From positions 1 through 5,988 of the IMG/VR virus record IMGVR_UViG_2534681774_000011: a stretch of DNA of 5,988 bases; one strand, 5' to 3'. Source of the stretch: a virus (lineage: Duplodnaviria > Heunggongvirae > Uroviricota > Caudoviricetes). The number at the start of each line of letters is the position of its first letter. Positions within the stretch are counted from its first letter, which is position 1. Positions 599-5,988 of the stretch are shown in pieces. The notes beneath the pieces were generated by a model. The model searched no databases. It saw only the letters and a program-made list of their open reading frames with translations, and was not told the DNA's origin. The position numbers were made by a program, and so were the translations under genes.

Positions 599-1060
599 AT
601 GACGGCAGAGTACATCAGGGACTGGCAGCAACCGCGCCACGCAGTGGGGCGTGAAGGAACGGGGATCCCCGCTCCTGAATCCGCGCTTTCCTCCTGGCTG
701 GATGCCTACCGGGCAGAGAACGAGCGCTGCCAGGAAATGGCTGATGCGGCGTTCTCCGCCACGCCGCTGGGCAACCTGATTAATAAAAGCCTGGACGCAC
801 AGGAAAAACAGGACAAAACCATCACACTGGCAGGAGACGCCAGAAAGCAGGCACGCGGCGCGGTGGATGAAGCCATGGCCTCGCTGCGCCTGCTGCCATC
901 CTATCTGCGCGATCCGCTTATTCGCCACCTCTCCTTCCTGCGCAAAAAACAGGAATCGACCGCCAGAAAGGCAAAAAGAGCTGGCAGGCTGAACGCTACG
1001 CGCGCGGAACCCTGCGCAAAATATTCGAACGTCTGGACCGCACCGACGGGCGCTGGCTGA
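599..1060 (+). CDS. probable N-terminal segment of the gpA-like replication initiator, in frame +2 (out of frame with the main ORF); alternatively a separate small gene
   Basis: ATG 599 follows the previous stop by 6 nt. The translation is protein-like up to about residue 125 (...LRLLPSYLRDPLIRHLSFLRKKQESTARKAK) and then turns low-complexity (RAGRLNATRAEPCAKYSNVWTAPTGAG). Exactly there, frame +1 becomes protein-like and continues into the HUH initiator ORF. Frame +1 is open from 871 to 1105 without any ATG/GTG/TTG. Confidence 0.5.
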   Translation: MTAEYIRDWQQPRHAVGREGTGIPAPESALSSWLDAYRAENERCQEMADAAFSATPLGNLINKSLDAQEKQDKTITLAGDARKQARGAVDEAMASLRLLPSYLRDPLIRHLSFLRKKQESTARKAKRAGRLNATRAEPCAKYSNVWTAPTGAG

Positions 1061-1104
1061 CACCGGGTTATCGCTCCCTTGCCGGACGCGAACGCCTGGA
1101 TGAT

Positions 1105-3420
1105 TTGCTTTACCTGCCGCAGCTCAACAAGCACCAGATACAGACGCTGGCCACCATGACGGCGGCGATGTTCAGCAGCACCTTCGAAACACTCTGCGAT
1201 GGCTTTGGTGCCAGAGATGGCGAACTGACCATGGATGTAACGCTGAAGGCGTATCGGATGCTGGCCCGTATCGCATTACGCCTGCACATCATGCCGCCAC
1301 ATTACGACGCACTGACAACAGACAAAGACCGGAGGAACGATCCGGACACGGAACTGTTACCGGGCGCAATCCTTCGCCTGACCTGTGCGGAATGGTGGAA
1401 ACGCAAACTGTGGCTGTTACGTTGCGAGTGGAGAGAAGAACAACTCCGCGCCGCCTGTCTGGTTTCCAGAAAAACATCACCCTATCTGAGCCAGGACGCG
1501 TTAAGCGAGTTTCGCGCACAGCGCGAGAAAACACGCGATTTCCTGAAAAGTTTCATGCTGGAAAATGAAGACGGGTTCACGATTGATCTCGAGACAGTGT
1601 ATTACGCGGGAGTAAGTAACCCGGTTCACCGTAAGGCAGAAATGATGGCCACCATGAAGGGACTGGAACTTCTGGCCGAAGCCCGTGGCGACAGAGCGGT
1701 GTTTCTGACTGTCACCTGCCCGTCAAAATACCACGCAACAACGGAGAACGGTCATCCGAACCCCAAATGGAACGGGGCCACCATGCGCGACTCCAGCGAT
1801 TACCTGGTTAACACGTTTTTTGCGGCGGTCCGCAAGAAACTGAACCGCGACGGCCTGCGCTGGTATGGCATCCGCACGGTGGAGCCTCACCATGACGGAA
1901 CCGTGCACTGGCATATGATGGTCTTTGCCCATCCGGAAGAAATCGACACCATTGTGTCCCACACCCGCGATATTGCCATTCAGGAAGATCGTCACGAGCT
2001 GGGCGATGATATTACTCCGCGCTTTAAGGCGGAGTATGTAGACGGCTCAAAAGGCACGCCAACCAGCTACATCGCCACCTACATCGGAAAGAACCTGGAC
2101 AGCCGCGCCGTGGATGGCATCGACCCGAAAACGGGCAAGCCACGCGTTGACCACGAAACAGGAAAATCAATGGCCGAGAGCGTGGAGCGCGCCATCGGCT
2201 GGGCGCGCCTTCACCGGGTCCGCCAGTTCCAGTTCTTTGGCATCCCCTCCCGTCAGGTGTGGCGTGAACTCCGCCGCCTTGCCAGCCAGATGGCACGCAA
2301 CCCGGAAGGCCCGCAACGGCTGAAGGATGACGCAATGGATGCGGTTCTTGCTGCCGCTGATGCCGGATGTTTTGCCACCTACATAGAGAAACAGGGCGGC
2401 GTACTTGTTCCACGCAAAGACTACCTGATTCGCACCGCCTACGACCTCGCCGATGAGCTGAACGATTACGGCGAACAGAGCGTACAGATTTACGGGATCT
2501 GGTCACCACTCATCGGGGAATCCTCCCGTGTGTGCACGCATCCGGATAACTGGAAGCTGGTAAGACGCAAACCGGAAGCGGAAGACAGCGCCCGCGAAAA
2601 TGGTTTTGACCTTCAGGGCGGCCCTGCCGCCCCTTGGACTCGTGGCAATAACTGTCCCCGTGTACAGGAAACGGACAACAACGGGACAGAACAGTCGGAA
2701 GAACGGCCAGCACCGTGGCCGCAGCTCCCTGACGGCGTTGAAGTGAACGAATGGATGCGCTCACTGAAACGGCACGAACGCCGGGCGCTGATGCGTTCGC
2801 TTCGTGACAAACAGGCAAAAAACAGCAGTGATGAAATGCAGAGCTGGACACAGAGCCGCAAACAGCAGCGGCCTTTGCCTGATAACCACGAATTACTCGC
2901 TAAAGAATGGCGGAAGTCTGCCGAATCTCTCGGCCTGCATATCGGTGAACAGCAGATGCAGCACCTGTTACGGGGCGGCAGTCTGTACGTTGACGGCAGC
3001 ATCATTGCACCGCAGGGATTTGAAATTGTACGCAAACCGGATACCCGCCCGGACAGTCGAATCACGCAGCTCTGGCAGCACCTGAGCCGTAATCACGGCG
3101 TAAGCAGCACGGAGATCCGCCATAACCCGGTCGCCAGCTATCTGGCACAGCTGGGGGCATCAGACCCCGAAGCCGCCGCACGCCTGGCATCCGCACTTCA
3201 GCAGGATCAGAACACCATGAAAACACCCGTTACCGTGCTTTCTGACATGCTGCGCGCCATCCGCGACGCAGAGCACGCACAGAGAATCAGTGAAACCACT
3301 GAACGCGCCAGCCGCAAAGCAGACCTGCTGCAGGGTGGCCTGACCAGTGGAAACAAAAAACAGACAGAAACGGGATCCACAAATCCCGTAAATGAGCAAA
3401 AAACGCGCCGCGATATATGA
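1105..3420 (+). CDS. phage P2 gpA-family rolling-circle replication initiation endonuclease (HUH nickase); major in-frame portion, likely N-terminally incomplete as an ORF
   Basis: 771-codon ORF. Contains the HUH-type metal-binding motif VEPHHDGTVHWHMMVF (nt about 1885-1930) and paired catalytic tyrosines Y-IAT-Y-IGKN (TAC 2068-2070 and 2080-2082), characteristic of P2 A-type initiators. The ORF-track start at 1105 is TTG with no convincing SD. Coding-like sequence continues upstream in the same frame to the stop at 868-870. Confidence 0.85.
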   Translation: MLYLPQLNKHQIQTLATMTAAMFSSTFETLCDGFGARDGELTMDVTLKAYRMLARIALRLHIMPPHYDALTTDKDRRNDPDTELLPGAILRLTCAEWWKRKLWLLRCEWREEQLRAACLVSRKTSPYLSQDALSEFRAQREKTRDFLKSFMLENEDGFTIDLETVYYAGVSNPVHRKAEMMATMKGLELLAEARGDRAVFLTVTCPSKYHATTENGHPNPKWNGATMRDSSDYLVNTFFAAVRKKLNRDGLRWYGIRTVEPHHDGTVHWHMMVFAHPEEIDTIVSHTRDIAIQEDRHELGDDITPRFKAEYVDGSKGTPTSYIATYIGKNLDSRAVDGIDPKTGKPRVDHETGKSMAESVERAIGWARLHRVRQFQFFGIPSRQVWRELRRLASQMARNPEGPQRLKDDAMDAVLAAADAGCFATYIEKQGGVLVPRKDYLIRTAYDLADELNDYGEQSVQIYGIWSPLIGESSRVCTHPDNWKLVRRKPEAEDSARENGFDLQGGPAAPWTRGNNCPRVQETDNNGTEQSEERPAPWPQLPDGVEVNEWMRSLKRHERRALMRSLRDKQAKNSSDEMQSWTQSRKQQRPLPDNHELLAKEWRKSAESLGLHIGEQQMQHLLRGGSLYVDGSIIAPQGFEIVRKPDTRPDSRITQLWQHLSRNHGVSSTEIRHNPVASYLAQLGASDPEAAARLASALQQDQNTMKTPVTVLSDMLRAIRDAEHAQRISETTERASRKADLLQGGLTSGNKKQTETGSTNPVNEQKTRRDI
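3368..3392. repeat. copy 1 of a 25-bp repeat containing a 7-bp-arm palindrome (AAACGGGAT-N6-ATCCCGTAAA); candidate centromere/operator or origin element
   Basis: aaACGGGATccacaaATCCCGTaaa. Arms ACGGGAT and ATCCCGT are perfect reverse complements separated by 6 nt. It lies inside the last 50 nt of the gpA-like ORF. Confidence 0.55.
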
Positions 3421-3496
3421 AGCGCGCACAAAACAGGCAAAAACGGGATTTCAGAATCCCGTAAACGATTAATTAATCAACATAAGGAAAAGCGAC
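3421..3496 (+). promoter_or_regulatory. putative promoter/operator region of the parM-parR operon
   Basis: AT-rich 76-bp intergenic stretch (..cgattaattaatcaacataaggaaaagcgac) with SD AAGGA at 3484-3488 and palindrome copy 2 overlapping the likely promoter. In known ParMRC loci the ParR-bound repeats flank the par promoter. No precise -35/-10 could be assigned with confidence. Confidence 0.35.
3441..3465. repeat. copy 2 of the same 25-bp palindrome-containing repeat, in the intergenic region upstream of parM
   Basis: aaACGGGATttcagaATCCCGTaaa. Arms and flanks are identical to copy 1 and only the 6-nt spacer differs. It is 73 bp downstream of copy 1 and about 30 bp upstream of the parM ribosome-binding site. 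Confidence 0.55.
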
Positions 3497-4456
3497 ATGA
3501 AAATTTGTATCGACGACGGCTCCACCAACATCAAGCTGGCATGGACTGAGAACGGCGAACGCCGCAACGCCATCAGCCCGAACAGCTTCAAGTCGGAATG
3601 GTCTGCGCCGTTCGGTGGCACGCATCCCGCGAACTACATGCTTGATGGCGTGCGCTATGGCTTTGATCCGGTCAGCGATCGCTTTGTCCAGACGACCGAC
3701 ACGCAATACCAGTACAGCGATGTGAATGTAATCGCCATTCACCACGCGCTGGTCAAATCAGGCATCACACCACAGGAGGTGGATGTGGTTGTCACCCTGC
3801 CACTGAGCGAGTATTTCGACACAAACGCACAGCCGGACATGGCCAACATCAACCGCAAAAAAGCGAACGTCATGCGCCCGGTGGAGTACCAGAACGGTGA
3901 GGCATTCACTATCCGTAACGTGCGGGTTATGCCTGAATCCATTCCGGCAGGCTTTAAGGCACTGGCTGACATGAGTCCGTTTGAATCCCTGCTGATTGTG
4001 GATTTGGGCGGAACCACGCTGGATGTGGCAAAGGTTCAGGGACAACTGGCAGGTATCAGCCAGGTGTTTTGCGATCCACACGTAGGTGTTTCACTGATGG
4101 CCGATGCCGTGCTGTCGGTGATGGCCACTAACGGTATGCGCACCAGTCACCACATCGCCAATACCATTATTGAACATCGCCATGATGAAGCCTGGCTGCG
4201 CCAGCACATCCACAATGACGCGCATTACGCCAGCCTGATGGCGGTTATTCGTGAAAAGGAAGAAACACTGAAACAACGCGTGATCCGCGCGCTGGCGGGT
4301 TTTTCGGGTTACGGGCGGGTGATGGTTGTCGGTGGCGGGGCGGAGATTGTGGCACCCGCTATCCGCGAAGCCTGCGGAGTTAATGCGACTTTCATCGCGG
4401 ACGGGGTGCCACAGTTTGCTCTGGTTAATGGGCTGTACGCAATGGACAAGGAGTAA
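3497..4456 (+). CDS. parM: ParM/StbA-family actin-like segregation ATPase (type II partition)
   Basis: 319 aa. The N-terminus MKICIDDGSTNIKLAW...ISPNSFKSEW...YQYSDVNVIAIHHAL...VDVVVTLPL closely parallels plasmid R1 ParM as recalled (MLVFIDDGSTNIKLQW...ISPNSFKREW...WQYSDVNVVAVHHAL...). Length matches ParM (about 320 aa). Actin-fold phosphate motifs DDGSTN and VDLGGTT are present. SD AAGGA lies 8 nt upstream of ATG 3497. Confidence 0.9.
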   Translation: MKICIDDGSTNIKLAWTENGERRNAISPNSFKSEWSAPFGGTHPANYMLDGVRYGFDPVSDRFVQTTDTQYQYSDVNVIAIHHALVKSGITPQEVDVVVTLPLSEYFDTNAQPDMANINRKKANVMRPVEYQNGEAFTIRNVRVMPESIPAGFKALADMSPFESLLIVDLGGTTLDVAKVQGQLAGISQVFCDPHVGVSLMADAVLSVMATNGMRTSHHIANTIIEHRHDEAWLRQHIHNDAHYASLMAVIREKEETLKQRVIRALAGFSGYGRVMVVGGGAEIVAPAIREACGVNATFIADGVPQFALVNGLYAMDKE

Positions 4457-4460
4457 GCCA

Positions 4461-4772
4461 ATGACGACACCAACCAGACGGATAAGTTTCTATCTGAAGC
4501 CCGCCGCCGTCAAGAACGAAGGCGAAGCATGCGCCTGGCTGGACAGCCTTACACCAGAAGCCCGCAAAAGTGGTCAACGCGTGGCTTTTCTGGCCGGGCT
4601 GGCACTACTGAAAATGAATCCGGCAGAGGCTTACCGACTGGCTGCATGGGCTGATGATGAGGCGTTATCAGTGACACAAACCAGGACAGAACGCCCCGCG
4701 TCACAGCCAGTATCAGCCGCACAGATAACCAGTCAGATGGCCGGAAATATCCGGGCGTTATTTCCCGAATAA
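4461..4772 (+). CDS. parR: ParR/StbB-like centromere-binding adaptor of the type II partition system
   Basis: 104 aa from ATG 4461, with SD AAGGAG at 4448-4453, 4 nt after the parM stop. The N-terminal region RRISFYLKPAAV...LDSLTPEARKSGQRVAFLAGLALL resembles R1 ParR as recalled (RRTIAFKLNPDV...LDSIPQGERSRLNRAALTAGLALY). The ORF-track start at 4326 is an upstream in-frame extension overlapping parM and is not used. Confidence 0.75.
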   Translation: MTTPTRRISFYLKPAAVKNEGEACAWLDSLTPEARKSGQRVAFLAGLALLKMNPAEAYRLAAWADDEALSVTQTRTERPASQPVSAAQITSQMAGNIRALFPE

Positions 4773-4777
4773 CACAA

Positions 4778-4801
4778 CATCAGGGCGCATCCGCCCTGAT
4801 G
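4778..4801 (+). terminator. perfect 10-bp-stem/4-nt-loop GC-rich hairpin immediately after parR; possible terminator or module-boundary structure (no U-tract)
   Basis: CATCAGGGCG-catc-CGCCCTGATG begins 6 nt after the parR stop. It is followed by ACTTTAACCC rather than a T-run, so it is not a canonical intrinsic terminator. Composition shifts to lower GC downstream. Confidence 0.3.
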
Positions 4802-4835: not shown

Positions 4836-5168
4836 ATGCAACACATTGACAGAGAAAAAGCGCAGCGACTGATTGAGCGGATGGAAGCGCTGGCGAAAGA
4901 AGAAAATGTCAACATCCAAAAAATAGCTGAATGTGGCCAGATAGTTCTTCGTCGTGAAAAAGACCTCAAACAACTGATGTCTGGCGAAACCAGCAAAACA
5001 TGGACTTCAGGTGAGGAGACGATTTATTGCAGCTTCTGCAATAAATCCCAGTACGAAGTCACAAAGGTGATTGCTGGACCGTCTGTTTACATCTGCAATG
5101 AGTGCGTGGATTTGTGCAATGAAATTATCAGGAGAGAAGTGACAGACAAAAAGGGAAAAAACGCATGA
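4836..5168 (+). CDS. small protein with a C-terminal ClpX-type C4 zinc-binding domain (zf-C4_ClpX-like), standalone and lacking an AAA+ module
   Basis: 110 aa. SD GGGGGA lies 5-6 nt before ATG 4836. The C-terminus ...[38 protein letters not shown] nearly matches the ClpX N-domain as recalled ([39 protein letters not shown]), with the four Zn-ligand cysteines CSFC...CNEC. The N-terminal 70 aa are predicted helical and charged. Confidence 0.8.
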
Positions 5169-5500
5169 ACAGAAAACAAAAACAAGAGTTGAAATACTTC
5201 TTACGTAAAGAAATTGCCAGGCTTGAAGATGCAGAATCACAATCATCAGAAATTCCGTTCGGAATGGATATCAACGACGCCCGTATACTCCAGGCATACC
5301 GCATAGCTCAGGCTGCACTACAGGCAAAACCGTCAGATGGACTGGTTAGAGCAGTACGTTTCTATGAACTGGTAAAGCGTGAGAATCCGCCAGTCGAAAC
5401 CGGAGCATGGAAAGACGCTGTTGACTGGGTGCTCAAAGAGGCTTGCCATGTTGTAAATATTGGTATCAAGGGAGGGGGATATGGCAACCAACAACCGTAA
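5165..5500 (+). CDS. hypothetical protein, 111 aa, translationally coupled to the ClpX-ZBD-like gene
   Basis: ATG 5165 overlaps the upstream TGA (5166-5168) in an ATGA arrangement. The translation is protein-like and no motif was recognised. Confidence 0.65.
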
Positions 5501-5675
5501 AGCAAAGATTCTGTTAGTTCGCAGAAACGATCCAGGCGTATGGCAGTGGGTGAGACTCAGCAACCGACGAATTGGGTTGATGAAATATTACGGGATGATG
5601 GATTGCGGTTTTTGCAAAAAGCCCAGCGCGGCGCAAAACCGCTGGAAAAACCACTTTCGCATTAAAGGAGAGTGA
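5481..5675 (+). CDS. hypothetical small basic protein, 64 aa
   Basis: ATG 5481 is preceded by a strong SD AAGGGAGGGGG (5468-5478) and overlaps the 3' end of the preceding ORF by 20 nt. The protein is lysine/arginine-rich ([23 protein letters not shown]...). The ORF-track start at 5460 is rejected in favour of the SD-backed ATG. Confidence 0.5.
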   Translation: MATNNRKAKILLVRRNDPGVWQWVRLSNRRIGLMKYYGMMDCGFCKKPSAAQNRWKNHFRIKGE

Positions 5676-5676
5676 G

Positions 5677-5895
5677 GTGCCTACACTATTCAGGAAAAAC
5701 TATCCGCGAAAGAGTAGAGCAATAGAATTTCTGTTTCTCATTCTGTTTATCGTGTTGATGATACCGATATCCCCGCTAATTTTTATCTGGGCAATCGGGA
5801 AAATAATTGAGCCAGTTATTGAATTGTATAACGACGTGGTATGGGCGTCGTTCAACACATTGCACAATAAAATTAATCCGTATAAGGAAAACTGA
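5677..5895 (+). CDS. hypothetical small membrane protein, 72 aa, with one long hydrophobic helix
   Basis: GTG 5677 lies 1 nt after the upstream TGA, with SD AAAGGAG (5664-5670) 6 nt upstream. The hydrophobic segment AIEFLFLILFIVLMIPISPLIFIWAIG is flanked by basic residues. The region is markedly AT-rich. The antisense ORF 5700-5969 is considered spurious. Confidence 0.5.
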   Translation: MPTLFRKNYPRKSRAIEFLFLILFIVLMIPISPLIFIWAIGKIIEPVIELYNDVVWASFNTLHNKINPYKEN

Positions 5896-5896
5896 T

Positions 5897-5988
5897 ATGG
5901 CAACGTTGACAAAAAAAGAACAGGCATGGTTGAACGAATTACAGGACGTTCTTGATCGCTGTCCATCACCGAAAAAAATTGGTTTTTA
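5897..5988 (+). CDS. 5' end of a further gene running off the window (MATLTKKEQAWLNELQDVLDRCPSPKKIGF...), function unknown
   Basis: ATG 5897 lies 1 nt after the preceding TGA (5893-5895) with SD AAGGA (5884-5888). The frame is open to the window edge. Only 30 codons are visible. Confidence 0.4.
   Translation, partial: MATLTKKEQAWLNELQDVLDRCPSPKKIGF

Follow-up and report, generated by a model that had tools for sequence, protein, structure and literature searches.

The window analysed here, a stretch of 5,988 nucleotides, belongs to a P88-like (Xuanwuvirus, P2 family) prophage of E. coli and carries the genes gpA, parM and parR in that order (Table 1), a junction that we found in 1304 of 5426 complete E. 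coli genomes. The gpA-like gene is broken in the window by a 1-bp deletion near position 955, leaving open reading frames at 599-1060 and 1105-3420; its counterpart in P88 is a single coding sequence of 940 amino acids. The gene closes with a stop codon at 3418-3420 and is separated from the parM start at 3497 by a 76-bp intergenic leader. The predicted ParM matches the structure of R1 ParM (1mwk, E 1.6e-92), and the predicted ParR can be aligned with an R1-type ParR from an IncFII plasmid. A sequence search found no relative of this ParR in the PDB, and an AlphaFold2 model of the monomer was of low confidence (pLDDT 58), with helices at residues 20-29 and 32-52 and a disordered N-terminal strand region; modelling is compatible with a ribbon-helix-helix fold at the N-terminus.

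Table 1. Positions of genes, repeats and other elements in the window.
Feature	Position	Strand	Description
gpA-like replication endonuclease gene	599..3420	+	Pfam Phage_GPA 3e-130; site 1 in 3' end
P2 origin nick-site homologue	2618..2655	+	29/38 nt, ~76% identical to P2; likely ori of the phage; outside the proposed parC
Repeat unit 1	3354..3395	.	A-rich left flank and palindrome ACGGGAT-CCACAA-ATCCCGT at 3370-3389; within last 17 codons of gpA
Repeat unit 2	3427..3468	.	Palindrome ACGGGATT-TCAG-AATCCCGT at 3443-3462; gpA-parM intergenic leader
Block ATTAATTAATCAAC	3468..3481	+	Between site 2 and ribosome-binding site; conserved across three genera as ATTAATCAA
parM	3497..4456	+	Actin-like segregation ATPase, 319 aa; Pfam StbA_N 3.4e-82, ParM C-terminal domain 1.3e-68
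parR	4461..4772	+	Adaptor and predicted centromere-binding protein, 103 aa, R1 StbB/ParR family; Pfam Plasmid_stab_B (PF10784) 1.5e-24
10-bp-stem hairpin	4778..4801	.	Directly after parR; terminator-like on minus strand; -20.5 and -25.3 kcal/mol, z about -5

The original prediction described two 25-bp copies of a repeat with perfect 7-bp inverted arms and similar A-rich flanks, one in the 3' end of gpA and the other in the parM leader, and this description was confirmed throughout. Copy 1 (AAACGGGATCCACAAATCCCGTAAA) lies at 3368-3392 and copy 2 (AAACGGGATTTCAGAATCCCGTAAA) at 3441-3465, and both contain the pattern ACGGGAT-N6-ATCCCGT; in copy 2 the arms are really 8 bp long. The similarity of the flanks allows the repeat to be extended to 42-nt units that are 79% identical and lie 73 bp apart, start to start, and which together hold four GGGAT/ATCCC half-sites arranged as inverted pairs. 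The sites are 35-127 nt upstream of the parM start, and the GGGA core of unit 2 begins 52 nt ahead of the ATG.

In simulations with a first-order Markov model, a window contained about 2.1 palindromes with perfect 7-bp arms, and two separate sites with a common arm arose in only 2 of 2000 windows. With up to three mismatches allowed, the pattern was found three times, against 0.22 expected per window. The third match, with three mismatches, at 5590-5609 (a partial site at 5588-5615), falls in a lambdoid cassette and was dismissed as chance, since Stx phage 933W, a phage absent from the records that encode a ParM homologue, has it too. A palindrome scan of IMG/VR recovered the 73-bp-spaced pair in P88-like loci only; the matches in records lacking ParM were single copies in unrelated contexts and were set aside. 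AA dinucleotides show a 10.5-bp periodicity across 3345-3475 (p 0.005), as they do in R1 parC (p 0.004).

Comparison with prophages of Hafnia and Plesiomonas, whose ParM proteins are 62-63% identical to that of the window, revealed that both retain two GGGA-N9-CCC dyads. The copies are spaced 73, 73, and 72 bp apart in the window, Hafnia and Plesiomonas, respectively, and in the same order the distance to the parM ATG is 125, 128 and 131 nt for copy 1 and 52, 55 and 59 nt for copy 2. When the regions upstream of parM were aligned, the conserved blocks were the GGGA...CCC of both copies and ATTAATCAA, the sole further stretch kept across the three, which corresponds to the block ATTAATTAATCAAC in the window, a possible -10-like element or AU-rich leader. 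The coding context of copy 1 differs between hosts: in Hafnia it is inside a separate 167-aa open reading frame, in another reading frame and without detectable similarity to gpA, and in Plesiomonas the C-terminal region of gpA downstream of the ori peptide has no detectable similarity to that of the window. This footprint comprises three genera only, and the pair statistics for RNA covariation across them did not reach significance. Scans of genome contigs, viral records and metagenomes for further genera with a TRR-type ParR returned none, mostly near-identical E. coli loci, and no phage with the same gpA C-terminus but lacking parMR was present in the phage collection.

Within E. coli, the GGGA and TCC cores are invariant in 84 haplotypes, as against variation in 40% of the neighbouring columns, and non-synonymous changes adjoin an invariant GGGA. 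The outer bases of the arms vary, and conservation of the arms as a whole does not clearly exceed that of the sequence around them. Conservation of the arms in related elements had been proposed as a check: the GGGA/CCC cores, the pairing of the dyads and their spacing are kept in Hafnia and Plesiomonas, with stems of 3-4 bp. These comparisons of sequence show that the repeats are under constraint as DNA and keep their place with respect to parM. The 79% identity over 42 nt would also fit a past local duplication that is neutral and without function; given that the pairing and spacing of the dyads and their distance to parM have outlasted the divergence of the intervening sequence between genera, and that the cores stay constant in E. 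coli while their neighbours vary, we consider this explanation highly improbable.

The location of copy 1 in the 3' end of gpA recalls P2, where the origin lies inside gene A, and a connection of the repeats to the replication origin had been raised as an alternative in the original prediction. According to the P2 annotation, the nick is at 29892, 427 nt before the A stop codon. The homologue of this nick site in the window is about 720 bp upstream of the palindromes; there the DNA is ~76% identical to P2 over 38 nt, despite gpA-type proteins that are only 33% identical, and the peptide encoded at the site, AAPWTxGNNC, is conserved. The palindromes themselves have no similarity to the P2 nick-site sequence. 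We therefore dropped the origin hypothesis, and sequence homology indicates that the replication origin of the phage is likely at 2618-2655. There is also very little chance that the repeats are gpA nicking, binding or termination sites: in Hafnia a separate open reading frame without detectable similarity to gpA intervenes between gpA and parM, yet both dyads adjoin parM, and in Enterobacter-type loci, where two genes separate gpA from parM, structured repeats are still found upstream of parM.

Palindromes at a gene junction might also act as RNA hairpins, with roles in processing, stability or translational coupling of the gpA-parM transcript, or as intrinsic terminators of the minus strand. 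The folding energy of each copy is about -10 to -11 kcal/mol whichever strand is folded, with plus-strand z values of -4.05 and -3.65. On the minus strand, where a T-rich run comes after each hairpin, a consensus scan calls the hairpins terminator-like. The plus strand, however, has no T-run, and the map of P88 shows no upstream minus-strand gene to be terminated, the nearest, portal, ending about 2.5 kb away; a much stronger hairpin follows parR. In Hafnia and Plesiomonas only 3-4 bp of stem are left around loops of 10 nt, and copy 1 has no folding advantage over shuffled sequences (z -0.15 to -1.3), an erosion which favours a DNA site over an RNA hairpin or terminator. Polymorphisms in E. 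coli are one-sided, and no strand is consistently favoured, since G-U pairs would be retained on opposite strands in the two copies. A search of Rfam 15 returned no family match at E up to 1 on either strand of 3200-3700. Considering these observations, a function of the palindromes at the RNA level appears rather improbable.

A comparison of 29 parMR loci showed that the motif repeated ahead of parM varies with the type of the N-terminal strand of ParR. ATTTTTC was present in 12 of 12 NRK-type loci, whether these belonged to P2-like prophages or to pOXA-48/IncFIA-type plasmids, and among the other 17 loci it was limited to one occurrence in each of two RRKITFYL loci. ATGCAA was confined to SRRCSFEL loci, AAACCC occurred four times in the R1-type locus, and the GGGA/TCCC dyads accompany TRR[IV]SFYL. 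In all intact copies of the clade except one, the ParR N-terminus TRRISFYLKP is identical, while the rest of the protein falls to 41-52% identity; this constant strand matches the constant target sites, and we counted it in favour of ParR as the protein that reads them. The mapping of motif to strand is not one-to-one, as the left half of the palindrome with its flank (GCAAAAACGGGA) is also found in Serratia and Enterobacter prophages with a slightly different ParR strand, NRKISFYL. We found no link between site variants and two alleles of ParR helix 1.

The occurrence of GCAAAAACGGGA in prophages with a different ParR strand leaves room for dyads that are operators of another DNA-binding protein, such as a host factor or phage regulator, acting at the gpA-parM junction with no part in partition; DNA-level constraint and dyad symmetry would be compatible with any binder. 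In the complete P88 genome, the dyad was otherwise found only in the endolysin and tape-measure genes (two matches, consistent with the 0.99 expected by chance) and there was none near the C/Cox immunity region, so an immunity or phage-wide operator was dropped from consideration. The fixed position relative to parM in three genera and the tracking of ParR type by upstream repeat motifs also speak against a different regulator, which we regard as unlikely.

It is probable, judging from the sequence comparisons, that the two palindrome units are the ParR-binding parC of a phage-borne type II ParMRC module, possibly serving as its operator as well. The sites are upstream of a gene for an actin-like ParM, as are the parC regions of R1 and pSK41, which lie directly upstream of parM-parR (PMC5016525), the gene for a small ParR adaptor directly follows parM, and the repeated motifs form an array of four half-sites, the motif upstream of parM following the ParR strand type across the 29 loci. 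Candidate ParR sites forming a minimal parC or operator were the first suggestion made for these repeats, and after comparative analysis this is the best-supported reading, which we continue to infer. Annotation as parC is sensible but unproven, and concerns a system of a known kind. The accompanying remark that two sites are unusually few was overstated; the palindromes provide four half-sites, and the parC regions that we inspected on plasmids with a ParR of this family vary in layout, direct and inverted. Precedents are srpC of SXT/R391, described below, and the ribbon-helix-helix protein omega, which binds direct and inverted repeats equivalently.

We infer ParR binding, its stoichiometry, wrapping of the DNA, an operator function and a role in a normally integrated prophage. 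The N-terminal strand TRRISFYL would pair in a ParR dimer to form a ribbon-helix-helix head that reads the DNA, binding GGGA(T) and (A)TCCC half-sites. The arm centres are 13 bp apart, and there would probably be one dimer on each arm and two on each palindrome. Separated by 73 bp, about seven helical turns, on A-tract-phased DNA, the palindromes could nucleate a wrapped ParR-DNA complex, in which ParM filaments would be caught at their ends by the tail at the ParR C-terminus (NIRALFPE, conserved), and the filaments would then push apart or position circular phage genomes. The same complex may also throttle parMR expression, as site 2 is directly upstream of the parM ribosome-binding site. Such an operator role is so far unsupported, because no sigma-70 promoter was detected at the consensus threshold near site 2 or elsewhere in 3400-3496, where candidates picked by eye were weak only (TTCAGA-N16-ATTAAT, 8 of 12 positions). 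Transcription of parMR may be simple read-through from gpA, and the hairpin that follows parR probably closes the parMR unit and serves as a terminator on the minus strand.

Among the closest known systems is R1 parC, which resembles the prophage site in lying directly upstream of parM-parR genes that encode a related ParM (the 1mwk match above) and a ParR of the same Pfam family, PF10784, and in its A-rich DNA, phasing of about 10.5 bp, and C- or G-triplet cores (the R1 iterons end ...AAACCC). R1 is a plasmid with ten direct iterons of 11 bp, divided into two sets on either side of a clear promoter, whereas the element described here is an integrated P2-like prophage with two 20-bp palindromes 73 bp apart, one of them within the upstream gene, and no clear promoter. 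The srpMRC system of the SXT/R391 integrative conjugative elements is also a type II partition locus, and its carrier, too, is normally integrated. The srpC site comprises four short repeats, direct as well as inverted; 40-bp fragments with two repeats apiece are bound by SrpR, whereas single repeats are not stably bound (PMC4489591). Homology between SrpR and ParR proteins is not detectable, the repeats differ in sequence and spacing, and binding and plasmid stabilisation have been demonstrated experimentally for srpC, whereas the prophage site is a candidate predicted from sequence. In the AlpAC system of the Corynebacterium prophage CGP3, a prophage again encodes an actin-like filament, and the adaptor binds repeats (alpS) ahead of the operon to which it belongs; the proposed role is to position phage DNA for replication (PMC4446434). 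The alpS site, however, has 24 short repeats (TTAAnnG), its proteins bear no family-level relationship to R1-type ParMR, and host and phage type are different. The P2 origin is alike only in being near the 3' part of gene A, its nick-sequence homologue being away from the palindromes.

About a quarter of complete E. coli genomes have this prophage junction, and its parM and parR are routinely annotated, but neither the cis site nor the role of the module was described in the literature that we found, and no paper naming a parC for P88-like phages came up. A side result of the analysis is the placement of the likely replication origin of these phages. With a 100-bp candidate centromere and four half-sites that can be mutated, the role of the module is directly testable; possible roles include positioning replicating phage DNA, stabilising the excised circle, and excluding related prophages. 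A more speculative and rather doubtful extension is that P2-like prophages, which normally reside in the chromosome, have in these two dyads a minimal centromere that overlaps the gpA 3' end, with which ParM filaments move excised or replicating circles or tug at the host chromosome locus, that assembly of the partition complex is physically coupled to expression of the cis-acting gpA, and that rapid diversification of the ParR linker beside an invariant strand reflects incompatibility or exclusion contests between co-resident prophages. If the parC reading is true, the R1 ParR family would gain a palindromic layout in addition to its known parC architectures.

The two repeat copies with perfect 7-bp arms claimed in the original prediction were confirmed in the sequence, and the arms, ACGGGAT and ATCCCGT, carry no mismatch in either copy. 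Copy 2 also reads as an 8+4+8 palindrome, ACGGGATT-TCAG-AATCCCGT, and a repeat finder indicated that the similarity reaches 42-nt units (3354-3395 and 3427-3468; 79% identity, 73 bp apart). The repeats are real and non-random: the palindrome pattern, with up to three mismatches, is expected by chance 0.22 times per window, and 2 of 2000 simulated windows contained two separate perfect palindromes with a common arm sequence. Because the upstream long ORF (gpA) ends at 3420 and parM starts at 3497, copy 1 lies within the final 17 codons of gpA and copy 2 within the 76-bp gpA-parM spacer, as had been proposed when one was assigned to the 3' end of the replication gene and the other to the parM leader. 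The AA dinucleotides of the repeat region have a 10.5-bp periodicity (p 0.005), as do those of R1 parC (p 0.004). The parM promoter that had been placed between the repeats was not recovered, as no promoter near the sites passed a consensus scan.

Features of the window and of the P2 nick region, with sequences or database matches
Feature	Position	Sequence or match
Copy 1 palindrome	3368-3392	AAACGGGAT-CCACAA-ATCCCGTAAA
Copy 2 palindrome	3441-3465	AAACGGGAT-TTCAGA-ATCCCGTAAA
gpA-type replication endonuclease	599-3420	Pfam Phage_GPA, 3e-130
parM	from 3497	Pfam StbA_N, 3.4e-82; R1 ParM structure match, E 1.6e-92
parR	4461-4772	Pfam Plasmid_stab_B, 1.5e-24
Hairpin directly 3' of parR	4778-4801	CATCAGGGCG-CATC-CGCCCTGATG
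Small protein, 110-aa ORF downstream of parR	4836-5168	ClpX-type C4 zinc finger, Pfam 8.2e-18
Lambdoid cassette, right window end	5474-5988	Stx-converting lambdoid phages, ~93% identity
Partial third site	5588-5615	
P2 nick region		GCGGCATCGCCGCGCCTCGGAGTCCTGTCAATAACTGT
Window counterpart of P2 nick region	2618-2655	GCGGCCCTGCCGCCCCTTGGACTCGTGGCAATAACTGT

The window shares 97% identity with Escherichia phage P88 and with other phages and prophages of the Xuanwuvirus group (P2 family). A search of 5426 complete E. coli genomes placed its 171-bp gpA-parM junction in 1304 of them, where the copies are nearly all chromosomal (92-99% identity) and nearly all flanked by annotated replication endonuclease and ParM genes. 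The gpA counterpart in P88 is one 940-aa CDS; relative to it, the gpA of the window lacks 1 bp near 955 and is thereby divided into two ORFs, 599-1060 and 1105-3420. This prophage copy may have no working replication gene, or the base may have been missed in sequencing. A frameshift in gpA is likewise annotated in a second E. coli copy, L006. In a degenerate prophage on the E. coli EC7518 chromosome (L005), gpA and both palindromes are deleted, and intact parM and parR lie directly 3' of a DUF4761 gene. The P88 counterpart of the small zinc-finger protein is annotated as carboxylate-amine ligase / ClpX, and the lambdoid cassette (DUF4014 and neighbours) is inserted in the variable region of the P2-like prophage. 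The hairpin that follows parR has a perfect 10-bp stem (folding energies of -20.5 and -25.3 kcal/mol for the plus and minus strands, respectively), resembles a terminator when read on the minus strand, and probably ends the parMR unit, insulating it from the variable cargo genes downstream.

A ParM search recovered P2-like prophages ordered gpA, parM, parR in four other genera (ParM identity to the window: Hafnia 62%, Plesiomonas 63%, Serratia 58%, Enterobacter 54%). The upstream footprint covers three genera, E. coli (the window), Hafnia (L020) and Plesiomonas (L023). In the latter two the region upstream of parM has diverged, yet two GGGA-N9-CCC dyads are retained, and the blocks kept in the three-way alignment are both dyads and ATTAATCAA just before the ribosome-binding site. 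Spacing is similar in window, Hafnia and Plesiomonas, with 73, 73 and 72 bp between the copies, 125, 128 and 131 nt from copy 1 to the parM ATG, and 52, 55 and 59 nt from copy 2. Hafnia has a separate 167-aa ORF overlapping the sites, in a different reading frame and without detectable similarity to gpA; the Plesiomonas gpA C-terminal region past the ori peptide has no detectable similarity to that of the window; and in E. coli, changes in the codons adjoining the invariant GGGA replace S with L or F. Since the dyads persist while the upstream coding context differs, these comparisons indicate that the constraint is on nucleic acid, with its position fixed relative to parM and not gpA.

The 160 P88-like loci compared comprise 84 distinct haplotypes. 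GGGA and TCC are invariant in both copies throughout, although 40% of the columns in 3350-3499 are variable, and in the most frequent haplotype the two copies each have perfect 8-bp arms. The expectation that relatives would conserve the arms and vary the spacers thus held for the GGGA/TCC cores and for the spacers but not for the outer arm bases, which also vary. Two rare IMG/VR haplotypes, each seen once, hint at concerted change of the two sites: L068 has CGGGA to CAGGA at the equivalent position in both copies, and L079 has ATCCC to AACCC in one copy and to ACCCC in the other.

Conserved palindromes upstream of a gene could act as RNA hairpins or minus-strand terminators, but several points weigh against this. 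For each E. coli copy the folding energy is about -10 to -11 kcal/mol whichever strand is taken, whereas the Hafnia and Plesiomonas stems are just 3-4 bp with 10-nt loops, and the folding of their copy 1 does not exceed that of shuffled sequence. On the minus strand, where each copy is followed by a T-rich run, both scored as terminator-like in a consensus scan, but P88 lacks minus-strand genes over about 2.5 kb on the relevant side, the plus strand lacks a T-run at the copies, and a far stronger hairpin directly follows parR. Pair counts over the three genera are not significant, E. coli polymorphisms are one-sided and would keep wobble pairs on opposite strands for the two copies, and Rfam gave no match to the repeat region. 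The conserved element is a GGG/CCC dyad with centres 13 bp apart, which would suit a dimeric or tetrameric DNA-binding protein, and this pattern of conservation indicates that the repeats are constrained at the DNA level.

The original prediction had alternatively linked the repeats to a P2-type replication origin. In the P2 record the gpA nick site is annotated at 29892, 427 nt before the gene A stop codon. P2 A and the window gpA are only 33% identical as proteins, and the DNA around the P2 nick aligns with a window stretch at ~76% identity over 38 nt. The peptide encoded by this nick-region homologue, AAPWTxGNNC, is also kept in a Plesiomonas prophage, and the origin of P88-like phages is therefore likely located there, about 720 bp upstream of the palindromes. 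The palindromes have no similarity to the homologue and were rejected as the origin.

Scanning the whole P88 genome for CGGGA-N8-TCCCG, one mismatch allowed, returned the two parM sites and two matches inside structural or lysis genes, the latter fitting the chance expectation of 0.99; no dyad was found near the C/Cox switch. Exact palindrome matches in IMG/VR that lacked ParM were lone copies in unrelated contexts. The partial third site in the window was rejected as a chance match; it sits in the lambdoid cassette and also occurs in phage 933W.

ParR family members start with a short basic strand, and the motif repeated upstream of parM varies with the type of this strand across the 29 parMR loci inspected, which came from plasmids, prophages and metagenomes.

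ParR N-terminal strand types and the motifs repeated upstream of parM
Strand type	Upstream motif	Loci
RRTIAFKL (R1 type)	AAACCC-type iterons	1
NRKC[SL]FYI (pOXA-48 and IncFIA types)	ATTTTTC	7/7
NRKISFYL (Serratia/Enterobacter-type P2-like prophages)	ATTTTTC, one large inverted repeat GGGAAC...AGAAAAAT / ATTTTTCT...GTTCCC	5/5
RRKIQFYI	TTTGAG	6/6
SRRCSFEL	ATGCAA / TTGCAT	4, motif confined to these
TRR[IV]SFYL (window clade, Hafnia, Plesiomonas)	GGGA/TCCC dyads	4

Of the 17 loci whose strand is not NRK-type, 15 lack ATTTTTC and the two of RRKITFYL type have it once each. As this motif is common to NRK-type phage and plasmid loci, the comparison shows, at the level of sequence, that P2-like prophages too have upstream repeats with the behaviour of ParR-type sites. 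Motif and strand do not correspond cleanly, since GCAAAAACGGGA also occurs in NRKISFYL prophages. This sister clade of P2-like prophages (L024 and L027 from Serratia, L025 from Enterobacter, L109 and L229) carries its inverted repeat about 60-120 nt upstream of parM, with arms of roughly 19 nt, GGGAACGA-ATAGAAAAAT ... ATTTTTCT-TTCGTTCCC, and a short central palindrome between them; its ATTTTTC core is that of pOXA-48-type and IncFIA-type plasmid parC iterons.

ParR identity within E. coli falls as low as 41-52% (homologues P0121-P0203), with two helix-1 alleles and a hypervariable linker (about aa 65-95). TRRISFYLKP is unchanged in all intact E. coli copies except one, and the sites are identical with either helix-1 allele; constant strand and constant sites fit recognition of the sites by the ParR strand. 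ParM identity is at least 98% in almost every phage copy, and ParR itself is conserved at residues 1-18 and in its C-terminal tail; this pattern of variation may reflect recombination or diversifying selection acting on the adaptor. The predicted ParR structure model was poor.

By sequence the window module falls in the R1-type ParMR families. R1 parC has ten direct 11-bp iterons around the promoter (PMC5016525), whereas the proposed centromere would consist of two palindromes, or four half-sites, with one palindrome inside the upstream gene. By analogy, such a palindromic, few-site layout has precedents: in SXT/R391 elements, srpC contains four repeats in direct and inverted orientation, and SrpR bound 40-bp srpC fragments that hold two of them each but did not stably bind single repeats (PMC4489591); RHH centromere-binding proteins can use both direct and inverted repeats (PMC5016525); and inverted layouts were seen in plasmid parC regions of the same ParR family. 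Prophage CGP3 offers a functional analogy, in which an actin-like filament and adaptor position phage DNA (PMC4446434).

On balance we lean towards reading the repeats as the ParR-binding parC, possibly also the operator, of a phage-borne ParMRC module. We found no description of parC or of a parMR role in the literature on P88-like phages, and the main value of the result is that experiments can now address what a very common prophage module does.
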